Virus record (IMG/VR): IMGVR_UViG_3300012942_000092
Coordinates: 1 to 34,939 of that record
From: a virus
Taxonomy: Duplodnaviria > Caudoviricetes
Length of the DNA: 34,939 nucleotides
Direction: 5' to 3' (one strand)
Shown here: positions 21,507 to 33,269 of the stretch, in pieces
How the letters are laid out: the number at the start of each line of letters is the position of its first letter
Numbering within the stretch: position 1 is the first letter of the stretch
Made by a program: the position numbers and the translations under genes
The notes under the pieces: model-generated
Database searches by the model: none
Seen by the model: the letters and a program-made list of their open reading frames with translations, nothing else
What the model was told of the DNA's origin: nothing

Positions 21507-23567
21507 CTAAAAATATTTTCCGTTTTCTGTAAGCCAATCCGGTGTTGTTTTCCAACCTTCCATACGTTTTTTATTGGCTTTTATCCAGGCCTGTGCGGTT
21601 TTGGGAATCTTTGTAATGTATTTGATTTTAGGTTTCTTTTCGGATATCCCTAAATTGAAGTCTGACATAGCTTCCCTTTCTGCAATTGAGCAAAGAATGG
21701 GAACTTCATAGCAAATGCAGTTACTGCCCCAGGTACACTTACCATTTCTCCTTACATAAAGTGTGTTGTTCTTTTCTAATGTCAAGTCATAAACCATTCC
21801 ATCATAAGGAATCAATTCTTTATCGTACACTGTAGTTGTTTTGGAATGGCATTCGTGTATTTTAATTAAGTCATTATTAATTGTGTATACACCATTATTA
21901 AACTCCTGCCTTTTACCTTTTGTTTTATCTATCGAAAAAGATGGCCGTTTCCCTATTTTTAATAACAACTCTCCCAATTGGCCGGCCATTATTTTGGATG
22001 AAGTAAACATCCATCTGTCTGGGCGCTTAGGAATGAATGAACCTCCTCTGTTCCCGACAAATGGATTTGGCTTTCTGATTGACCCATCGCAAGAAATAAA
22101 CGCATTCAGGAATATTTCAATTTGCCTTGGGCTAGAATTCATTATTTCTTCTGGAACAAACTTATCTGGCGACTTGCCGAATTGTGACAAATAATAATAA
22201 AAATCATTATCGTGAGAATGAAACCCATCATTCCGGATTGTGTATTTTACCCCAATTTTATCAAGACATTCTTTTATTTCCGCTCTATTTAACTCATCAT
22301 TGCCTTTCATAGCCGCAATACCCCATGCCGTTCTTGATTGAATAACTGCGCCATCAGTCAGGTAATACCCCATAAATTGACAAAACAAATCGAATCCGAT
22401 TATGTGATTTCCTATAACCATATTCCTTTGATCTGGTGCTGAATATTCAGATGACCTGTAGAAGTGACCCTTCCCTTTGGTCATTTCATCTGCCCTTCTA
22501 TGGGAAATGAACTTCTTTGAATGAGGGCTTATAACAAACATTGGGTGACCAGGGGTTACAACCATATCAAAAAAAGCATTTTTAAAATGAACCATATTGC
22601 CGATATAGTTATTTGCATGTGTTTCAATGCATTTTACATACTCCAAATTTTTGGTTTCTGTGTTTAACGACAAAATCATTTCGCCAATTTCTACGTCTTT
22701 AAAATACCTCCACCCAGATTTAGTATACACTTCGGTTTGGTCGTCATAACAGTTTACATGCCATTTCGTAAAATTAAACTCTTTCGGGTACTTGCCTGCT
22801 AAATTATCGCACATATCATATTTCGGGTGTGATATAGATGTTTTGACTTCTTTTCCGATTATCCACCATTTGCCCTGCATCTGCCTGTAATCATTGGCTA
22901 AATAAGCCTTGTTGATCTCATTCCTGGCAGTTCTGTAAGCGTTCTTTTTCGGGTCTTTATATACTCCTGGACCGCTGGACTTCATGGCACCTTTACGGTT
23001 GGTGAGCGCCGCTTCTCGAAGGTCTTTAGAAAGCTCTCTGGCACTTCTACCTGTCTTCAATCCTTCGGTTATCGTTTCTTTAATAAACTTCCTAGCGGAC
23101 TTTTTCCATACACGACTGGATAAGTTCAGGTCTTTTTTGATAAATTGCCTAGCTGCAGCTTCTGATCCGGTACCGTATGCTTTCCGGATCCTTCCAAAGT
23201 TCGATTCCATATTATCAGATACGGATATCGGCTTGATAGGCGGCTTATCTCCACCAAAGGCGGACTTCTCCACCAAATCAATCTTTTGTTCTGATAATGC
23301 CCAGGATTTAATGGCGCCTTTCTTAATTTCAAGGCCAATACGACCTGTGAGCGTGTCTAATATGGTTCCTATTTTTTCCTGTACATACTTAGGCAGCGTT
23401 CTGTTATTGACTAACCTAGCCCTGGCAGAGAAATAAGCCACGTCGGTATAAGCCTGGTTGATCAGCTCAACAATACGAGCCATGACCGCTTCTGAAATAC
23501 GAATGTTTTTGCGTTCGTAGTCCTTTATTAAGTCCTCTAACGTGTATTTGGTCTTGGTCTTAGGCAT
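21507..23567 (-). CDS. MuF/SPP1 gp7-like minor head protein interrupted by an intein
   Basis: GRSARELSKDLR, GPGVYK...NAYR.ARNEIN, CD.LAGKYPK.F.F..WHVN|C.C motif split by the intein. Confidence 0.85.
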   Translation of the reverse strand: MPKTKTKYTLEDLIKDYERKNIRISEAVMARIVELINQAYTDVAYFSARARLVNNRTLPKYVQEKIGTILDTLTGRIGLEIKKGAIKSWALSEQKIDLVEKSAFGGDKPPIKPISVSDNMESNFGRIRKAYGTGSEAAARQFIKKDLNLSSRVWKKSARKFIKETITEGLKTGRSARELSKDLREAALTNRKGAMKSSGPGVYKDPKKNAYRTARNEINKAYLANDYRQMQGKWWIIGKEVKTSISHPKYDMCDNLAGKYPKEFNFTKWHVNCYDDQTEVYTKSGWRYFKDVEIGEMILSLNTETKNLEYVKCIETHANNYIGNMVHFKNAFFDMVVTPGHPMFVISPHSKKFISHRRADEMTKGKGHFYRSSEYSAPDQRNMVIGNHIIGFDLFCQFMGYYLTDGAVIQSRTAWGIAAMKGNDELNRAEIKECLDKIGVKYTIRNDGFHSHDNDFYYYLSQFGKSPDKFVPEEIMNSSPRQIEIFLNAFISCDGSIRKPNPFVGNRGGSFIPKRPDRWMFTSSKIMAGQLGELLLKIGKRPSFSIDKTKGKRQEFNNGVYTINNDLIKIHECHSKTTTVYDKELIPYDGMVYDLTLEKNNTLYVRRNGKCTWGSNCICYEVPILCSIAEREAMSDFNLGISEKKPKIKYITKIPKTAQAWIKANKKRMEGWKTTPDWLTENGKYF
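21720..22751 (-). mobile_element. intein with LAGLIDADG homing endonuclease (344 aa)
   Basis: starts CYDDQTEV; block B TPGH; FMGYYLTDG and FLNAFISCDG; ends VYDL...WGSN followed by Cys+1. Confidence 0.9.
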
Positions 23568-23806
23568 TACTTAGTTGCAAATAAGGATACAGGCGGCATA
23601 CTTATACCGCAAACTTTAAGATAAATAGGCGCTCCGGCCTGAATGGCTAGTACTTCCTCCGGTGTAGGCTCCCAGGCTGTCATAACGAACGGCAATCCAT
23701 CTTCATCAGTACCTCTAAGAGCGTGTACGGATCCACATTGTTCGTCGGTTATATCTTCAGGGCGGGTTAATATTACATTCGCCCCTTCAAATTTTATTGG
23801 TGTCAT
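23567..23806 (-). CDS. hypothetical phage protein
   Basis: 79 aa, translationally coupled to the MuF gene; W.PT.EE...I..G.PIYL..G..MPPV pattern. Confidence 0.75.
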   Translation of the reverse strand: MTPIKFEGANVILTRPEDITDEQCGSVHALRGTDEDGLPFVMTAWEPTPEEVLAIQAGAPIYLKVCGISMPPVSLFATK

Positions 23807-23811
23807 GATTC

Positions 23812-24072
23812 CTAATTTATTTTATAGTCTTTTTCTGATGTTAACTCAAATGATTCATATTCAGCTTCTCTATCAAAGAATGATACCTTATAAGCAAGCC
23901 TGCCACTACGTACAACAATGCCAGTAACGATTAATCTGTTTTGATCCGGATCTGTTTTTGCATACACAAATGATTCTATTGGAAAGGCCGGATTTAGCAT
24001 GATTGTGCCATCACTGAAAGAATTATAATCAGGTACACTATCAGAACTGTTGCTATGTAGATTAGGTTCCAT
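23812..24072 (-). CDS. hypothetical protein
   Basis: co-oriented, tightly packed; VY.KTDPDQ..IVT motif. Confidence 0.7.
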   Translation of the reverse strand: MEPNLHSNSSDSVPDYNSFSDGTIMLNPAFPIESFVYAKTDPDQNRLIVTGIVVRSGRLAYKVSFFDREAEYESFELTSEKDYKIN

Positions 24073-24085
24073 TTGCGGTTAGTCA

Positions 24086-24721
24086 TTATTGAAGTTTCTT
24101 AGCTTCTTTTAACAATAGGTCTCTAATGTATGTGATATCAGACGCTATTTTGCGCCCGTCATTCAGGACTATAGTAAGCATATCGGTACTGCTGTCGAAC
24201 TCAATTTGCTTGTATGTGCTTCCAGGCTTTTCCATAGTGTTCCCATGATAGTAATAATATTCTGGATCATTTACACGTATGTACCCGTTTTTGTCGGGGA
24301 TTTCACTGTATAGGCCATGGCTGCAATTCATAAAAGGCACGCCGCCAATGGTTCCGCTTTCTTTAATGATTTCACCAGGTACAATATCCTTCGCATCAAT
24401 AGTAACCGCTTTCCCCTTTGCTTTCTTTTTCAGGCGCTTGACATCTTTGTCAATGCCACGAACGACTTCATAAAGAGATTGCAAACCGGAATCTGTGTTG
24501 TTGGACTTTTTTCGGTCTGCAATAGCATCGTTTAATAGCCCGTTTATATTGGTACAAGTACACTGTGTTCTGACGTCCAAACGGGTTAATTCGATATCCA
24601 CCTTGTCCAATCTCTTTTCCAGCGGTGACCGGTACAACTTCCTTAATGCCAGGCCGATTAAACCACCTAAAAACATTGTGATAAATACGCCTAAAAGGAA
24701 TGCGAATAATTGAGGGTTCAT
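24086..24721 (-). CDS. membrane-anchored hypothetical protein
   Basis: N-terminal TM segment plus coiled-coil. Confidence 0.7.
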   Translation of the reverse strand: MNPQLFAFLLGVFITMFLGGLIGLALRKLYRSPLEKRLDKVDIELTRLDVRTQCTCTNINGLLNDAIADRKKSNNTDSGLQSLYEVVRGIDKDVKRLKKKAKGKAVTIDAKDIVPGEIIKESGTIGGVPFMNCSHGLYSEIPDKNGYIRVNDPEYYYYHGNTMEKPGSTYKQIEFDSSTDMLTIVLNDGRKIASDITYIRDLLLKEAKKLQ

Positions 24722-24999
24722 GATTTTGTAATTCTTTCGTTTAATTGTAATTTGATTTTAAGGCTACTAAGTTTACTCATTGCCCTACTAACATTGAACT
24801 GTTTTGCATCGAAATAGGATTGATAAATAATTAGTTGAGTCTCTTTTGAAAGATTACCCATTAAATTGGGGATCTCTACATAATTATTGTATATTATATC
24901 TTCCAAAATGTTAATAATTTCTTCACGAAATATATTGGATGGTATGAATGCTGATATATTTTGTAGCTTTTCGAGTAGTACTATCCTTGCTGTAGTCAT
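24718..24999 (-). CDS. hypothetical protein (AT-rich)
   Basis: ATGA overlap with the next gene; A-rich start context. Confidence 0.6.
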   Translation of the reverse strand: MTTARIVLLEKLQNISAFIPSNIFREEIINILEDIIYNNYVEIPNLMGNLSKETQLIIYQSYFDAKQFNVSRAMSKLSSLKIKLQLNERITKS

Positions 25000-25008
25000 G
25001 ATTTTGTT

Positions 25009-25374
25009 TTAAAAGGATCTCAAAATGCAGCTTCCTACTTTCTTTTGCCTGACAATAGTCTTGTCGCCTGATTTGTTCCACTTTTGCCGGCCAGTTGATT
25101 GCAAGTATTGGCCGTATTCTTTGGGGCGCATACCTGACCCTTTCCGGTCTCTGACAGGATAATACCTCTGTTCTGCCATTGTATCGGCCTTCCTTTCTAC
25201 CTTTTTAGGTTGTTCTTTGGCCGCTTGAGCTTGTTCCGTAATGGCTTGATTGGTTTCTGCACTGGCATTGTTTGTAGCCCAACCAAAAGCGCCTAGAGTA
25301 AGGCCTAACATTGCTAATTTGGCTATTGTTTGGGATCCTAACCCTTTCAGTTTTCTTTTTCTTGATTTTGGCAT
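25009..25374 (-). CDS. hypothetical protein with signal/anchor sequence
   Basis: basic N-terminus, hydrophobic stretch, ASA|E possible cleavage site. Confidence 0.65.
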   Translation of the reverse strand: MPKSRKRKLKGLGSQTIAKLAMLGLTLGAFGWATNNASAETNQAITEQAQAAKEQPKKVERKADTMAEQRYYPVRDRKGSGMRPKEYGQYLQSTGRQKWNKSGDKTIVRQKKVGSCILRSF

Positions 25375-25394
25375 TGTTGGTTTTATTTTTTGGT

Positions 25395-25610
25395 TTAATA
25401 ATAATCTTCCATAAAGTCGCTGTCATCCATACCCCATATAGCTACCACGAACATACCTGCAACAACGGCAATCGAAAGGGCCAGCATGGACCATGGAATA
25501 AAAACGATCCACCATGACCAGGCAATTACATTAAAGAGCTTCAGGGCAATAAAGACGGTTCCCAGTATAAGTGTGCTGAAAAGCGTGAGGATTGTTTTGT
25601 CGGTTGACAT
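25395..25610 (-). CDS. small multi-TM membrane protein
   Basis: FIALKL..VI.WSWW.VF.P.W pattern; hydrophobic throughout. Confidence 0.75.
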   Translation of the reverse strand: MSTDKTILTLFSTLILGTVFIALKLFNVIAWSWWIVFIPWSMLALSIAVVAGMFVVAIWGMDDSDFMEDYY

Positions 25611-25990: not shown

Positions 25991-26032
25991 CAAATATATT
26001 AAGAAAAATAATAACTGACAAATAGTAAGTTA
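25991..26032 (-). promoter_or_regulatory. promoter of the tRNA/accessory island, overlapped by an 18-bp shared motif
   Basis: TTTG (26022..26019)-N20-TATATTTG (25998..25991); TAACTTACTATTTGTCAG at 26032..26015. Confidence 0.7.
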
Positions 26033-27523: not shown

Positions 27524-28822
27524 TTATGCCCACGGGATTTTAGAGTTTTTCGGGGTTCGTTTACCTGCCAGTTTTCTAACTATATATCTGATGGCATCCC
27601 AGCTGTGATTAAACTTATCGATAGGAATGCCGGCCTTTTTATCGTTCCACTTATAGTTTTTGGCTTCCATAATTACATTGGTGCTGCGGGGCGTGATAAT
27701 GATCTCATAATCATTTATTTGGGCTATGCCGGCACGAATACTATCAGGGCCTTTTTCGCACTCGATAATATTTAATCCTTTCTTTCTTAAATCGGATATC
27801 AAGCGGCCTTCTGCTGAATCAGCCACTATCAAATCATTAGGTGTTCTGATCCTGCTTTTATTGACATTGAGAATATCATCGGTGCTTAAGTGTTTGGTGT
27901 CGTAGTATTCCTCGTCGATGTAAAGCCTGTTTAGTTTCTTATCGATGGCCACACGAATAAGCGTATCCGGATCCACAGACCAACCATAGTCCTGGCCATA
28001 TCCATAAGGAATATTGTTATCGAATTCTCCCAATCTCCAGTTACGAATACAGGCGCCTTCTGCCATATCTGCCCAGCGGCCTATAACAGTAGTGGCGTAC
28101 TTAGAAAACTGGAACTTCCTTTTGTCTAGCTTGCCGTTAATATCGGTACACAATTCAATGGATTGTTCACGGATCTGTAATATCTTACTAAGCCAATCTG
28201 GATGGACGTTCTCTATATTGTCCAGGTAAGTAGTATGGATATGTAATACATCCGGATGGGTGCTGATCTGAACATCTACACCGTCAATTTCAACAATCTT
28301 GTGTGTTTTCTCGATATAGCGTTTGTAAATGAAGTGTTCAGCATCGGTAGGGTTCATCAGAAGGATGATCCTGTTTTGTACCCCCTGCTGGCGTATAGAA
28401 AGCTCCAGCTTCTCAAAATCATCTTCTGACTGCCATTCCTCCATTTCATCACCAATGAAGGTCGTAAGCCCCTGAATGGACTTCAAATTGGCCGTCTGGT
28501 TACCAGATGACGTTTTGATACCCCTGAACATGATTTCAGAGCCGGAAAACAAATTCTTAATGTCAGTTTTGGTGATACTGAACTTGTCAGCCGTATTATC
28601 CATATCTGGCCCCATCTTTTCTTTGAACTCTGGGATAACCGATATATCAGCCGCTGCCATGGTATAACGGGCAAACAGCATCTTATGCCCCTTTTCAAAA
28701 GAAAGGCGCTCTATAAAAGTGGAAGCGTTGAACGATTTAGCGGAGCCACGGCCACCGGTAATTAAAACAATTCGCTTGTCACTTGTATAAAGAGGCTTGT
28801 ATGGGTCCTGGACCTGGATCAT
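27524..28822 (-). CDS. terL: terminase large subunit, PBSX family (start probably MIQVQ at 28822)
   Basis: Walker A GGRGSAKS, Walker B FIGDE, MNP, nuclease QDYGWSVDP, ADSAE, NHSWDAIRY. Confidence 0.95.
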   Translation of the reverse strand: MIQVQDPYKPLYTSDKRIVLITGGRGSAKSFNASTFIERLSFEKGHKMLFARYTMAAADISVIPEFKEKMGPDMDNTADKFSITKTDIKNLFSGSEIMFRGIKTSSGNQTANLKSIQGLTTFIGDEMEEWQSEDDFEKLELSIRQQGVQNRIILLMNPTDAEHFIYKRYIEKTHKIVEIDGVDVQISTHPDVLHIHTTYLDNIENVHPDWLSKILQIREQSIELCTDINGKLDKRKFQFSKYATTVIGRWADMAEGACIRNWRLGEFDNNIPYGYGQDYGWSVDPDTLIRVAIDKKLNRLYIDEEYYDTKHLSTDDILNVNKSRIRTPNDLIVADSAEGRLISDLRKKGLNIIECEKGPDSIRAGIAQINDYEIIITPRSTNVIMEAKNYKWNDKKAGIPIDKFNHSWDAIRYIVRKLAGKRTPKNSKIPWA

Positions 28823-29358
28823 TTTTCTTCCGATACCTGTCCCGACATAGCTAATAGCCACTTATCAGGGGAGATGCTACCAGTCACAGACGCTTTGACA
28901 TCCTGCTCTACACGGTCTTTATAGCCATATTTGTTTTTAAGGACAAACTCGTCCATACGTTCACCAGAATAGATCAATCTATACTCTAAGGTCTCCTCTA
29001 TAATGCCTATACGGTCGGACACGTTAACGTTATCTTTAAACTTTTGCTTCCATTCTGACCACTGTTGTTTTGTCACTCCATGAATAAGCCGGACCTCTCC
29101 AATCAATTTTAAGTCATTGGCTCTCACTGGGTTATTATTTGCCATACCTGTAGTATCGGAAATAATCGTTTCCCAGATCGCATTTAGCTTTTCCATTACT
29201 TTGTCTTCGGTCCATATCTCGGCTGCTTTGTTACCTGGCTTAAATGGGGTCAACTGTGGAGGTACTTTTCCTTTCTGTACTGGCTTTTTTGGTGTTTTCT
29301 TACCTGGCTTCTTTGCAGCCTTTTTAACCACCTTTTTGGGTGTAGTTTTGGTGTTCAT
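28819..29358 (-). CDS. terminase small subunit (start probably MNTKTT at 29358)
   Basis: overlaps the TerL start; FKPGNKAAE.W and F.LKNKYGYKD motifs; the ORF-track start at 29454 would cross a terminator. Confidence 0.75.
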   Translation of the reverse strand: MNTKTTPKKVVKKAAKKPGKKTPKKPVQKGKVPPQLTPFKPGNKAAEIWTEDKVMEKLNAIWETIISDTTGMANNNPVRANDLKLIGEVRLIHGVTKQQWSEWKQKFKDNVNVSDRIGIIEETLEYRLIYSGERMDEFVLKNKYGYKDRVEQDVKASVTGSISPDKWLLAMSGQVSEEK

Positions 29359-29379
29359 AAGTGTTTTGGTTAGGTTATT

Positions 29380-29404
29380 AAAAAAGAGGGCGATTAAGGC
29401 CCTC
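29380..29404 (-). terminator. intrinsic terminator after the Arg-rich micro-ORF
   Basis: GAGGGC-CTTAATC-GCCCTC-TTTTTT. Confidence 0.8.
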
Positions 29405-29413
29405 TGTGACAAA

Positions 29414-29497
29414 TTAGCTGCCTTGTGTTGAGCGGGATGCTCGAACTCTGGCACGAATCTGTCTGCTTGTTAAGATCTGTCCACGTCTACGTCTCAT
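29414..29497 (-). CDS. 27-aa Arg-rich peptide MRRRRGQILTSRQIRARVRASRSTQGS (not in the ORF track)
   Basis: ATG with A-rich leader, TAA then terminator; fills the gap between 29516 and the terminator; 9 Arg and no acidic residues. Confidence 0.7.
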   Translation of the reverse strand: MRRRRGQILTSRQIRARVRASRSTQGS

Positions 29498-29515
29498 AAG
29501 TTAACGTTTTAATTG

Positions 29516-29887
29516 TTAGGAAATATCTGATAAGTCTACCAGCTTTTTGTTGATCCGGAAAGCGCCTGGTGCTTTTTTATCCGGTTCAGTTATTTCTATC
29601 CCCAGTTTCTTTGCAAATGCTTTTCCATCGATATATTGAGGATCAGAAGGGGTAATGCCTAATTTATTGTAGAACTCCTGCAGTTGCCTTGAATTGTTGA
29701 AAGTGATCACTGCAAAATAATTCGCATCTACATTGTCTTTGAAAGTATCTTTTTCCTTTTGAGCTGCTTTGCTGAATTCGGTTGTTAATTCGCTTAGTTC
29801 CTCTTTGCAGTCCTGTTCAATGTTACCGCCGACCACTTTCTTTGGTTTTTGCTTTAAAGCGTTCTTTGTATCGAATTTAAATGCCAT
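29516..29887 (-). CDS. hypothetical partner of the PAPS-reductase-like gene
   Basis: overlaps the end of the PP-loop gene; F.VITF....Q...F...LG...YIDG..FAK.LG pattern. Confidence 0.7.
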   Translation of the reverse strand: MAFKFDTKNALKQKPKKVVGGNIEQDCKEELSELTTEFSKAAQKEKDTFKDNVDANYFAVITFNNSRQLQEFYNKLGITPSDPQYIDGKAFAKKLGIEITEPDKKAPGAFRINKKLVDLSDIS

Positions 29888-30566
29888 ATCGTTTTAATTC
29901 AACATCGATTAATGGGAAAAATTGTTTTAGTTTCTCGTAATCATCTGGGAAGTGATCTTTTAATGGCTTTATAAATCTATAGTCTAAGCCATCGAATGAT
30001 TTACCCCAGATCTTATAATCTACTGGCAGCTTAATGCCAGAGTCTTTGATTTCTTTTACCAGGCGTTCGATATTCCAGTCATAAACAGGAAAGAACGTTT
30101 TTCTATTCTCGTTGACCGCGCCAAATTTGTTGATTGAGCGCCACCTATTGAGCGAATCAGAAGCCCGTACGCCTATTGCTGCCATTACATTATCTTCTAA
30201 ACCCAGGTCATCTTTTACATAGCCGTTTACGTCATCGTTATCAAAATTGGGTAATTGCATTTTCTGAATGATTGCCCAGGATAATTTTGACTGAAATAGC
30301 CCACTGTTTAGATGTTTGTAAAGCATCTGATTAGGAACTCTGATTATCTTTGTTCCCATGACCTCTTCATAGTAAGACAAAGATTTGTTTATAAAGTCTA
30401 AATCCGGATGCAAGTAGTGGTAAATTGGTACAATCTTATGGAAGTATTTCCTCAGCTGGATATATGAAGCGATTGCATCTTTCCCACATGAAAACCGCAA
30501 AAGACAGACACCGTTTAACCGTTCTGCCATTTTCTCGCAAAGTTCCTCACTTGTTTTGTATTCCAT
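29877..30566 (-). CDS. PAPS-reductase-like PP-loop protein (start probably MEYKTS at 30566)
   Basis: FSCGKDA PP-loop, GVRASDSLNR, FPVYDW, LPVDY..WG.SFDG motifs. Confidence 0.8.
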   Translation of the reverse strand: MEYKTSEELCEKMAERLNGVCLLRFSCGKDAIASYIQLRKYFHKIVPIYHYLHPDLDFINKSLSYYEEVMGTKIIRVPNQMLYKHLNSGLFQSKLSWAIIQKMQLPNFDNDDVNGYVKDDLGLEDNVMAAIGVRASDSLNRWRSINKFGAVNENRKTFFPVYDWNIERLVKEIKDSGIKLPVDYKIWGKSFDGLDYRFIKPLKDHFPDDYEKLKQFFPLIDVELKRYGI

Positions 30567-30568
30567 AG

Positions 30569-31012
30569 TTAAAACAGACACGGTTTGCACTTATCTGTAT
30601 TGATTGTCAATAATTTAGATTCTATTTCCGGAAAAATTTCCTCTACCTGCTTTCTTAAGTCGTACATGTCATTTTTTAACCAGGCACGTACTTCTTTGAA
30701 CATAACTGAACAATTACTTTCTTTCATGCCTATTTGCTCCGCTACTGCTTTGCATAAGCCTTGTTTGAGTGTAAGCGCCCTATTATCTTCTGCATACATT
30801 TTAGGATGATATTTCTTGAATACGACAGCAATAAACGCCCGTTTATCTGTATAGCCCAGTGAATCAAAAGCCTCCTTAATAGTGCTAACCCTGTGAACAT
30901 CCAAAGTACAGCGAATCTTAGATAATTCGGCCATTGCTTTGGTATATGCATCAGGCGCCAGGCACTTTAATAGTCTATGAGCTGAACTATTTTCCTTTCG
31001 AGATAATGCCAT
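30569..31012 (-). CDS. hypothetical, possible DNA-binding late regulator
   Basis: own promoter; GLCKAVAEQIGMKESNCSVMFKEV is HTH-like. Confidence 0.55.
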   Translation of the reverse strand: MALSRKENSSAHRLLKCLAPDAYTKAMAELSKIRCTLDVHRVSTIKEAFDSLGYTDKRAFIAVVFKKYHPKMYAEDNRALTLKQGLCKAVAEQIGMKESNCSVMFKEVRAWLKNDMYDLRKQVEEIFPEIESKLLTINTDKCKPCLF

Positions 31013-31028
31013 CTGTCAAATGTTTACA

Positions 31029-31070
31029 CAAATATAGTTTAATTATTGCTATCTGACAAATGGTAAGTTA
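31029..31070 (-). promoter_or_regulatory. promoter of the pre-terminase cassette, overlapped by the 18-bp shared motif
   Basis: TTTG (31060..31057)-N20-TATATTTG (31036..31029); TAACTTACCATTTGTCAG at 31070..31053. Confidence 0.7.
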
Positions 31071-31340: not shown

Positions 31341-32246
31341 CTAAAGTTTGATTGTGTTCAATTCTTTAATTAATCTCTTGGTGGCCCATTGGGCATTGCC
31401 AGTGATCTTTCTTTGCCAGGCTTTGTTAGTGGGAGACCATTTGAAGGCGTTCTTTTTCATGAGTGCAATAACTTCTGTTGCCGGCTTGCCTTCAAAATAA
31501 AACATGATCCTGTCCAATTCTCCGTTTTCTTCCACTTTGAACCAACTGCTTTCAATTTCATTTTTAACCCCACTATTCCGATTATCAACCTTTTGCTGCA
31601 GTTCTTTGACCCGCTGCTCCAGACGTTTTATGTTCGCTAGATTATTAGTTAACTCAAATGTAGCGAATCCATAAGCGCAACAATGCCCAGGTTTTTGCAG
31701 CTCTTGAGCGACCGGAAAGATCAATCCAAGTTTCATTAATTTTTCCGTGCAGTCAGCACCTTTGGACGCTCTGATGATTTTATTGGCAGTTTTCATCATT
31801 TCTTGATTCTTGACACGCTGAGCCAGTTCGTTTTGGGCTTTTGCCAAGGTGCTATCAATCGTTACCGGCGGTTGGTAAGATTTTATGATTCTGCTTTTCA
31901 CTTTATCTACAACTTCCATAAATTTTTGGTAAGCAGCATGTTCACGGTCATTTGCCTTTTGCGCTCTTTGTACTGGAAAATTTGAGCCACCAGTTATAAA
32001 CGAACTAATACAATTGCTCTTTGCCGATAACCAGGCAGCGAAATACTTTTCATAAACTTCCTGGAAGTTCGCTTCATCGTCTCCGCTATCTTTGCCCCAC
32101 TTTGCGGCTTCATTACTAATTTGATCCAAATATTCCTGTAGCTCAATGGCGTGTTCTTCAATAACTCGTTTGCCGACTCTTTGCGGATCCATATGAATCC
32201 CGCTGTGCGCTCTTATTGCCTGTTCTGCGAATCTTTCTAATAACAT
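31341..32246 (-). CDS. DUF3560 / polyvalent-protein-associated-like protein
   Basis: SSFITGGSNFP, LTNNLANIKRLEQR, DRI..YF.GKP...MKKNAFKWSP..KAWQR pattern. Confidence 0.6.
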   Translation of the reverse strand: MLLERFAEQAIRAHSGIHMDPQRVGKRVIEEHAIELQEYLDQISNEAAKWGKDSGDDEANFQEVYEKYFAAWLSAKSNCISSFITGGSNFPVQRAQKANDREHAAYQKFMEVVDKVKSRIIKSYQPPVTIDSTLAKAQNELAQRVKNQEMMKTANKIIRASKGADCTEKLMKLGLIFPVAQELQKPGHCCAYGFATFELTNNLANIKRLEQRVKELQQKVDNRNSGVKNEIESSWFKVEENGELDRIMFYFEGKPATEVIALMKKNAFKWSPTNKAWQRKITGNAQWATKRLIKELNTIKL

Positions 32247-32285
32247 TTCTTATAAGTTTTTGATTTTTAATAAAGCTGGCAAGAA

Positions 32286-32639
32286 TTAATCTTTCCAGAT
32301 AACTTCAATATCGACCATGTTTTTAACTTCATGATTTACAATATATTGGCAAAATTCATAATCCTTCTTAAAGAATTTTGCATCGTTTTTGCATTCAATT
32401 GTAAAGATCTTTTTGATCCATAACCCAGGCGCTTTATTTACTTCTACCAGTTTGGCAAGCTTTAATTCAACTGTAAGTCGATCTTCGTTATAACGATTAC
32501 CCGCTATTTGAGCCATCTCAAATTTTAAATATTCCTGATCATGAACCAATCTTTTTGCTATAACTACGCTTTGGACCTGTCCGTGCTCGTTAGTTAATAC
32601 ATCACCTGGGAAAATATCGTTTATTTCAAATTGATTCAT
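32286..32639 (-). CDS. hypothetical protein
   Basis: co-oriented 117-aa ORF with A-rich leader. Confidence 0.65.
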   Translation of the reverse strand: MNQFEINDIFPGDVLTNEHGQVQSVVIAKRLVHDQEYLKFEMAQIAGNRYNEDRLTVELKLAKLVEVNKAPGLWIKKIFTIECKNDAKFFKKDYEFCQYIVNHEVKNMVDIEVIWKD

Positions 32640-32677
32640 TGTTTTAAGTTTTTAAGTTTTTCTGGCAAGCAATCGAA

Positions 32678-33154
32678 TTAATAAGCCAATACCCGTCCAC
32701 CTGTTTTAATAGCCTGGGAGCCATATTTTGCTCTTATTTGGCCAATCTCGAACGTTTTACCTTTGCCAGTAGATTTATATTCAGCTGGCCTATAATACCA
32801 CATCATTTTTTTGCTAGCCCAATAGAACCCGTTCGCTTTCAAAACCTCTTTGTGCATTCGAGTATTACCAGATACCCAGATCCAGGACCCGCAAACCTCG
32901 ATTTCGATACCTGAAAGATTAATAATTGCATTAATAATGTCTTTGTACTTTACTGATTCGTTTGCTTCAAAATCTCTTTCCTGCTGACTGAAATTCGAAC
33001 CGCTTAATATTTTTGCAGTCATAAAAGCATACTGACTGTTTAACATCTGCATCATTTCAGTTGAGCCGCCTTTATCTGGATGGAATTTTAACGCAAGCTT
33101 TCTGTAAGCTGCTTTTAATTGTTCGATTGTTTCAATGTTTGAAAAGAATGTCAT
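32678..33154 (-). CDS. J-domain (DnaJ-like) protein
   Basis: LKAAYRKLALKFHPDKGG with the HPD motif; C-terminal GSWIWVSG..LK..GF.W..KK.MWY domain. Confidence 0.85.
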   Translation of the reverse strand: MTFFSNIETIEQLKAAYRKLALKFHPDKGGSTEMMQMLNSQYAFMTAKILSGSNFSQQERDFEANESVKYKDIINAIINLSGIEIEVCGSWIWVSGNTRMHKEVLKANGFYWASKKMMWYYRPAEYKSTGKGKTFEIGQIRAKYGSQAIKTGGRVLAY

Positions 33155-33237: not shown

Positions 33238-33269
33238 CAAAGATAAGTAGTTCAGTCAAATGAACCAAA
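33238..33269 (-). promoter_or_regulatory. promoter of the J-domain operon with a GTTC-N8-GAAC palindrome in its spacer
   Basis: TTTG-N20-TATCTTTG; gttcagtcaaatgaac at 33250..33265. Confidence 0.7.

Follow-up and report, generated by a model that had tools for sequence, protein, structure and literature searches.

A pre-terminase phage module encoding a PP-loop enzyme, a helper and a tail-tagged basic peptide

The DNA analysed here (the window) is a 34.9-kb (34,939-nucleotide, nt) fragment of a tailed phage with an integrase, IMG/VR record IMGVR_UViG_3300012942_000092. Before the small terminase gene (TerS) it carries a module of three genes, for a PP-loop enzyme, a helper and an Arg-rich peptide, followed by a terminator and inserted in a swappable slot (Table 1). 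The host was probably a Bacteroidota bacterium of the Niabella kind, since the nearest named relatives of the enzyme are in Niabella (76–79% identity). All elements of the cassette were on the minus strand, and their coordinates in an initial annotation of this DNA all agreed on rechecking.

Table 1. Features of the pre-terminase operon and module (window coordinates; aa, amino acids)
Feature	Position	Strand	Remarks
Bacteroidota-type promoter of the pre-terminase operon	31060..31029	-	match to TTTG-N19-21-TAnnTTTG; resident, not module-specific
147-aa pre-TerS gene, outside the module	31012..30569	-	resident in this phage lineage; syntenic look-alikes in enzyme-less loci
PP-loop enzyme, 229 aa, predicted adenylyltransferase/ligase	30566..29877 (ATG start)	-	PHROG 2302; fold match
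Helper, 123 aa	29887..29516	-	11-nt overlap with enzyme; ParB-like C-terminal domain match
Arg-rich peptide, 27 aa, predicted substrate	29497..29414	-	conserved Ser/Thr-Gly-rich C-terminal tail, STQGS here
Intrinsic terminator-like hairpin and U-run, between peptide and TerS	29405..29385	-	
TerS	29358..28819	-	PHROG 606, E 0.003; directly before TerL (Pfam Terminase_3)

The window peptide (3.2 kDa) contained 9 Arg, 4 Ser and 2 Thr and no Asp or Glu. Its relatives were counted in 91 of 115 dereplicated representative loci; the remainder, with less than 500 nt of sequence beyond the helper, were left out. A strict rule, written after the first loci had been seen, called basic open reading frames (ORFs) of 18–65 aa that carried the tail and lay no more than 700 nt downstream of the helper; the peptide was the only window ORF on either strand to pass it. 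By this rule a peptide was found downstream of the helper in 41 of the 91 loci and anywhere in 49, against 0–1 and 0–7, respectively, in ten shuffles and 1 on the opposite strand. Sixteen enzyme-less loci fetched by TerL similarity, 12 of them with upstream DNA, served as controls, and their sole tail match was one antisense ORF. A looser rule gave 57 loci and reading by eye added 20, bringing the peptide to 77 of 91, so that the conservation of the micro-ORF beside enzyme homologues, which the initial annotation had proposed as a check, was borne out. A Shine-Dalgarno-like site preceded 111 of 122 distinct peptide genes (the best start being chosen). The ratio of non-synonymous to synonymous changes (pN/pS) was 0.18 over 34 disjoint pairs of equal length, chosen at 60% identity or more, third positions accounting for 191 of the 276 changes; among the changes listed between the window and related contigs, the one within the peptide gene was synonymous. 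The peptide ORF was thereby confirmed as a real gene family under purifying selection. The gene was annotated in phages Cafasso (gp168) and CA1NRNZ and missed in Pm86, BigBern1, VanLee and RAP44. A structured RNA in place of a peptide was rejected, there being no Rfam match near threshold and a codon-position pattern that says protein; the RNA folding z of the 151-nt stretch, terminator included, was −3.05. In locus L107 (4050–4700) a HigA/HigB-like pair, recognised by eye, occupied the place after the helper on the opposite strand, and no peptide was found there.

Bodies, N-termini and lengths of the peptides varied and only the tail was fixed. In a table of 100 peptides of 23–62 aa, the consensus was R(−5), S/A/T(−4), S(−3), G/S(−2), S/T(−1), with Arg in 68 at −5, Ser in 78 at −3, Gly in 55 or Ser in 31 at −2, and Ser or Thr in 84 at −1; the table is partly circular, as the filter used tail traits and five chance ORFs were dropped first. 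Asp and Glu together made up 0.7% of the residues. In L023, L036, L038, L090 and L097 the gene had shifted upstream or onto the opposite strand and still had its tail, and five loci had a pair of peptides that matched in tail and differed in body. The peptide of a Niabella aurantiaca prophage (32 aa) shared the STQGS end of the window copy. Among the 77 peptides, 60 ended in Ser or Thr, and Ser/Thr was kept in the tail even when it was not the last residue. Tail type followed enzyme clade in a quick tree, a descriptive result in which kin share labels. A fixed nucleophilic Ser at −3, mirroring the Cys tail of CysH, was ruled out by the Gln at that place in the window. A reverse search with the back-translated tail pattern, made without the enzyme, returned 120 loci, nearly all of them off-frame chance matches; it recovered one known module locus (L363), 17 basic enzyme-less candidates that were unconvincing as genes, and one unrelated IbrA-type neighbour.

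The window enzyme matched PHROG 2302 (E 9e-18) and, as the nearest defence model, SspD of PADLOC (E 1.2e-5, residues 23–215); no Pfam or NCBIfam model matched it, the PAPS-reductase models included, and its profile had no match among the sequences of solved structures. Its predicted structure (predicted local distance difference test, pLDDT, 95.7) had a Rossmann-like PP-loop fold. By structure comparison FAD synthase was closest (Z 13.7, root-mean-square deviation (rmsd) 3.0, 160 residues aligned), followed by CysD (Z 12.5, rmsd 3.4, 154 aligned) and the APS/PAPS (adenylyl and phosphoadenylyl sulfate) reductases (Z 12.4–12.5); Cap9 gave Z 9.7, CysH-type folds standing 3–4 Z above QueC/Cap9. 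The closest solved folds had rmsd 2.7–5.2 and 7–16% identity, and the nearest among them belong to adenylyltransferases. As Foldseek ranked TtuA, GMP synthetase and TilS first at similar E-values, the model assigns the enzyme with moderate confidence to the CysH/FAD synthase/CysD/SspD-type subfamily.

The PP-loop SxGK[DE] was intact in 108 of 109 homologues (S26-x-G-K-D in the window), and the motif G132-x-R-x-x-D-x-x-x-R141 was conserved, with G132, R134, D137, R141 and F191-D192-G193 near invariant. The enzyme is predicted to be an ATP-pyrophosphatase and would use ATP. Cysteine reached 15 or more of 121 homologues only in columns 10, 21 and 27 (71, 29 and 52, respectively); there was no conserved cysteine in the catalytic core and no Cys column after residue 27. 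The alignment also lacked ECGLH, the C-terminal catalytic Cys tail of CysH. The family comprised 461 clusters at 50% identity with E ≤1e-30 and 1,179 with E ≤1e-10. Homologous loci in viral contigs were gathered with an alignment query, a single-sequence query having returned none, and 431 of 599 pattern matches were confirmed as enzyme homologues. In L003 (2083–2778) a second, different PP-loop protein (SGGKDS) lay directly upstream of the module.

A helper homologue was found in 164 of the first 167 loci; of the 115 later representatives, some of them short contigs, 104 had one. Enzyme and helper were fused into one protein, the enzyme first, in 8 of 150 representatives. PHROG 9353 matched 25 of 74 members, and the helper profile matched the C-termini of the ParB-like proteins of phages RAP44 and LR1 (E 7e-5 and 4e-5). 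The ParB N-terminal profile matched only L166 and L165, those of the RAP44 and LR1 phages, among the 115 representatives and was absent from the fetched flanks of all 113 loci of the window enzyme's clade. Fold searches gave no match above Z 2.7 or E 0.001, the Atlas search yielded unnamed phage clusters only, and no defence-system model matched. In sequence the helper resembles the C-terminal domain of ParB-like phage proteins; the nucleotide-binding domain of ParB is missing from it, and it is likely to be bound to the enzyme.

Named hosts of the module were Bacteroidota, Bacillota, Actinomycetota, Pseudomonadota, Verrucomicrobiota and Myxococcota, and many carriers were prophages in bacterial genomes. 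A terminase gene was found within ~3 kb in 58 of 73 loci, 34 by our own profiles and a further 24 by PHROGs (86 of 103 candidate ORFs scanned), which upheld the packaging link suggested initially; of the remaining loci three adjoined a head protease, four adjoined unnamed families of terminase-like proteins, and eight had no such match. The adjoining TerL families were PHROG 2, 9, 15 and 38.

The boundaries of the module were drawn from the enzyme-less relatives. Neither enzyme nor helper was found in any of the 16 control loci. In the 12 with upstream DNA a gene of 120–147 aa preceded TerS; ten such genes aligned to the window 147-aa ORF with 16–20% identity and four invariant columns. A profile of this family also matched upstream in L001 and L082 and in the enzyme-less L249 and L261 (E ~1e-3). 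As relatives of the 147-aa gene precede TerS in phages without the enzyme, it lies outside the module. The slot between it and TerS was empty in seven control loci and held a ParB-like gene in four (L249, L250, L256 and L261: a lone gene of 232–264 aa, PHROG 17622/940, with no enzyme beside it). TTTG-N19-21-TAnnTTTG, the Bacteroidota-type promoter consensus, matched four times in the window against 1.03 expected (4 of 100 shuffles reached four), every time between genes and on the coding strand; it also occurred in 4 of the 10 enzyme-less control loci inspected, lying at the 147-aa family gene or shortly before it. Since the slot is empty or ParB-bearing and the promoter shared in these relatives, the module is an insert in a swappable slot. 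The promoter proposed initially therefore stood by its match to this consensus; a sigma-70 scan alone gave it no support (20 found in the window against 23.2 expected, not above chance). The terminator proposed after the micro-ORF was also present, and in 8 of the 9 Bacteroidota-type relatives inspected a hairpin lay within the 60 nt that follow the peptide stop. The initial view of a self-contained cassette thus held for enzyme, helper, peptide and terminator, and not for the 147-aa gene and promoter, which belong to the resident operon. The regulatory role given to the 147-aa gene found no family support: Pfam, PHROG, NCBIfam and PDB had no match, a sequence search of solved structures with the family gave E 0.17 at best, and the Atlas search returned unnamed phage clusters and no regulatory family.

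A sister clade (LR1/Lactobacillus type) bears ParB. All 14 of its distinct loci had one, and often two or three, basic proteins of 35–170 aa with dissimilar bodies and tails ending in Gly-Gly, Ser-Gly or Gly-His, a pattern that, judged from sequence, would be expected of a transferable C-terminal tag. In the Lactobacillus-type loci L263–L285 the basic proteins, unlike in body but with a common Gly-ended tail, lay between the PP-loop and ParB-like genes, sometimes with one more before TerS. In RAP44 (L166:2270–2480) an unannotated 44-aa basic ORF lay between an ASCH-like gene, recognised by eye, and the PP-loop gene.

From the three genes, their conservation, the selection on the peptide, its tail, the fold family and the terminase linkage, all directly supported, we infer a covalent chemistry and an acceptor. 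The C-terminal tag is fixed on basic bodies that otherwise vary freely, it recurs in paralogues, and it is passed on together with an intact PP-loop enzyme; therefore the enzyme presumably acts on the tail, and covalent chemistry of some kind on it is probable. Of the roles offered initially for the peptide, that of enzyme substrate is favoured by the fixed, clade-following tail, and that of a free protamine less so. We propose that the predicted ATP-pyrophosphatase and its ParB-tail-like helper would recognise the tail and that its ligation would proceed by way of an adenylated intermediate, the most likely acceptor being phage DNA around the time of packaging. Either the C-terminal carboxylate of the peptide would be adenylated and form an amide with a base amine, or a DNA phosphate would be adenylated, as proposed for DndC/SspD/TdpC-type enzymes, and attacked by a Ser/Thr hydroxyl of the tail. 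The Gly-Gly tails speak for the carboxylate route; the extended tails and the CysH-type fold speak for hydroxyl attack on an adenylated phosphate. The Arg-rich body would hold the tail on the DNA, and once the genome has been injected, the adduct would protect it or serve as its mark. The position in the slot, the helper's likeness to a ParB tail, that of the enzyme to SspD and the basic peptide body speak for DNA as the acceptor. We hold the ATP-dependent ligation of the tail to phage DNA tentatively, at somewhat less than even confidence. The wider picture, a widespread phage ligase system without ubiquitin or E1 that covalently attaches basic peptides or small proteins with a portable five-residue tag to the genome being packaged, is possible, and we would put it a little lower. 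Capping of the ends of packaged DNA was not favoured, the module occurring with several terminase types. Complex prediction on the 32-aa Niabella copy gave weak support, scoring 0.37 (runs 0.02, 0.37 and 0.47) against 0.00 for the best control; in calibration, 116 of 157 solved pairs and 2 of 215 mismatched ones came up to the mark set for this score, 18 of the 157 and both mismatches with a score no higher than 0.60. The runs shared at least 6% of contacts, with a peptide pLDDT of at least 38.

Several observations weigh against ligation of the tail to phage DNA. No peptide was found by the strict rule, the looser rule or eye within the fetched flank in 14 of the 91 loci. Seventeen of the 77 peptides did not end in Ser/Thr, about 11 of them having 1–8 extra residues after a normal-looking tail, and ends were atypical in the cultured phages Cafasso, VanLee and CA1NRNZ; such ends argue against strict use of the terminal carboxylate. 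The sixth PP-loop residue is Ala in the window, as in 44 of 121 homologues; in 76 it is Ser. Adducts of 3 kDa would have to pass portal and tail at a steric cost, and a host-type promoter and a terminator before TerS would also fit expression outside the late phase. No short motif was cleared from the gene-bearing stretches of the window, BigBern1, CA1NRNZ, Pm86 (first 50 of 56 kb) or Cafasso, which weighs against a bulky sequence-specific adduct because clearance might be expected. Restriction-type palindromes were strongly avoided in Pm86 and RAP44 (GATC in RAP44: 2 observed, 236 expected). A standard kit sufficed to sequence VanLee DNA to 1,488-fold coverage (PMC8320454), a weak sign against dense adducts. 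The anti-restriction DNA modification raised in the initial annotation gained no support from these k-mer tests, which did not refute it. In RAP44, of the ParB clade, a 1,264-nt gap free of GGA/TCC lay near the module (record 28652–29916), and a CG-poor gap in Cafasso was an intergenic stretch.

The same tail, selection and paralogues would serve if the enzyme put a small group on the tail (AMP on Ser/Thr, amidation, cyclisation or a nucleobase) or linked it to a protein of the phage or the host; the peptide thus altered would be a packaged, ejected DNA-condensing or anti-defence factor, RiPP-like (ribosomally synthesised and post-translationally modified peptide) or ubiquitin-like, with no link to DNA. 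Ser/Thr kept inside extended tails suits a side-chain mark, DNA without motif avoidance fits, and Cap9 and QatC are PP-loop enzymes that act on protein termini. Self-cyclisation is unlikely, since 78 of 100 peptides have no Lys, 98 of 100 have no Cys, and N-termini and lengths vary. A non-exhaustive scan of the neighbourhoods showed no protease, transporter or amidotransferase gene as a regular companion of the module, and the ParB-tail helper and slot point to DNA instead. We regard this explanation as somewhat unlikely.

The slot, the ParB-tail helper and the SspD similarity would equally suit an enzyme and helper that mark phage DNA with a metabolite, the peptide being a non-covalent subunit, activator or protamine-like packaging aid; such a role would tolerate tail extensions and the loci without a detected peptide. 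A terminal tag common to dissimilar bodies of 23–170 aa and to paralogues, however, exceeds the needs of DNA condensation, and no donor-supplying gene accompanied the module in the neighbourhoods inspected; this makes for an unlikely account. A prophage-expressed toxin-antitoxin or defence unit, in which the peptide would be toxic by binding nucleic acid or ribosomes and be neutralised by enzyme and helper through tail modification, would explain the host-type promoter, the terminator after the peptide and the many prophage carriers. The near-constant position at terminase genes, the promoter pattern common to module-less relatives and a helper that matches no defence model make it improbable. 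DNA phosphorothioation, other sulfur transfer or auxiliary sulfate assimilation, to which the PHROG label "PAPS reductase", the SspD match and the CysH-type fold would point, is very improbable for an enzyme with neither a core cysteine, a catalytic Cys tail nor a Pfam/NCBIfam PAPS-reductase match and for peptides without Cys; no sulfur genes were matched among 42 window ORFs scanned against PHROGs, nor were ParB families, as had been reported initially.

Elsewhere in the window, a second Bacteroidota-type promoter (33269..33238) preceded a gene run upstream of the operon (31341..33154, minus strand) that encodes a 301-aa protein matching PHROG 19458/6744 and a DnaJ-domain protein; these look like early genes of an anti-defence type. 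Another (26022..25991, minus strand) lay right after the portal gene and before six small unannotated ORFs (25610..23567) in the head operon. A 686-aa MuF-like head morphogenesis protein (21507..23567, minus strand) had weak intein-like matches (PHROG 85, residues 268–347; a DnaB model, 463–556) and may contain an intein or a fused extension.

The module is real, widespread and apparently undescribed: no description of the peptide or module was found in the literature searched, judged from listings, with subscription papers and supplements outside the scope. What is new is its anatomy, for which no described counterpart was found; its chemistry is a proposal. Phage "PAPS reductase" genes are often read as helpers of sulfur metabolism; the branch in this module appears to lack sulfur chemistry, and the tiny tagged peptide that accompanies it mostly escapes annotation. 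Should the tail prove to be ligated, phages would have an undescribed conjugation chemistry with a short portable ligation tag, possibly a peptide-DNA link against host defences, and peptide-armoured DNA, if true, would be a new kind of DNA modification. The module is present in cultured phages of Gordonia, Bifidobacterium and Lactobacillus, so it is directly testable.

Among known systems, the ParB-Tls loci ("PAPS reductase + ParB-like nuclease" of RAP44 and LR1; PHROG 424/2302 with PHROG 9353) share the pre-terminase position and a homologous enzyme with the module; the C-terminal part of their ParB protein is homologous to the helper, and basic tail-tagged ORFs are found there too. DNA modification in the course of packaging has been predicted for ParB-terminase loci (PMC4738411); phage ParBs are activators of a DNA-modifying enzyme and depend on their C-terminal domain for this (PMC13229309). 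The module differs in having no ParB N-terminal domain and a tail that ends in Ser/Thr rather than Gly. A CysH-type PP-loop domain is shared with DndC, SspD, BrxP and TdpC, the last reportedly the subject of a study by An et al. in 2025. Such phosphorothioation enzymes act on DNA (PMC12914056, PMC10853773). The module enzyme, in contrast, has no conserved cysteines, no desulfurase and no P-loop ATPase partner of their kind, and is phage-encoded with a peptide; among its window neighbours no DndD/SspC/BrxC-type P-loop NTPase model matched, TerL being the only P-loop enzyme. Cap9 of type IV CBASS (cyclic oligonucleotide-based antiphage signalling system), which occurs with CdnD, is a PP-loop enzyme that couples a nucleobase to the end of a protein (bioRxiv 2025.04.06.647259). 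Cap9-CdnD and QatC-QatB resemble the proposed module in the PP-loop enzyme, acyl-adenylate chemistry and protein-terminus conjugation, and differ in the QueC subfamily, zinc site, N-terminus and free nucleobase, the module having a CysH-like enzyme and a conserved C-terminus. FAD synthase, the ATP sulfurylase CysD and CysH are the closest folds, but they have metabolic small-molecule substrates and no peptide or helper. IbrA of the IbrA/IbrB PP-loop pairs carries a DUF3440 C-terminal extension, which the 229-aa module enzyme, itself without a Pfam match, lacks. Lasso cyclases, MccB and E1/ThiF activate tails next to a small gene with a fixed terminal tag, and these RiPP/ubiquitin-like systems, with TtuA-TtuB, share with the module a small tagged gene by an adenylating enzyme and paralogous precursors. 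The module has no leader/core layout, its enzyme is of a different subfamily, and no RiPP recognition element (RRE), protease or exporter was seen; unlike ubiquitin-like proteins, its peptide is 27 aa long and basic, without a beta-grasp fold and without Asp/Glu. It resembles RiPP systems in that a ribosomal peptide gene is under selection and co-inherited with a modifying-type enzyme.

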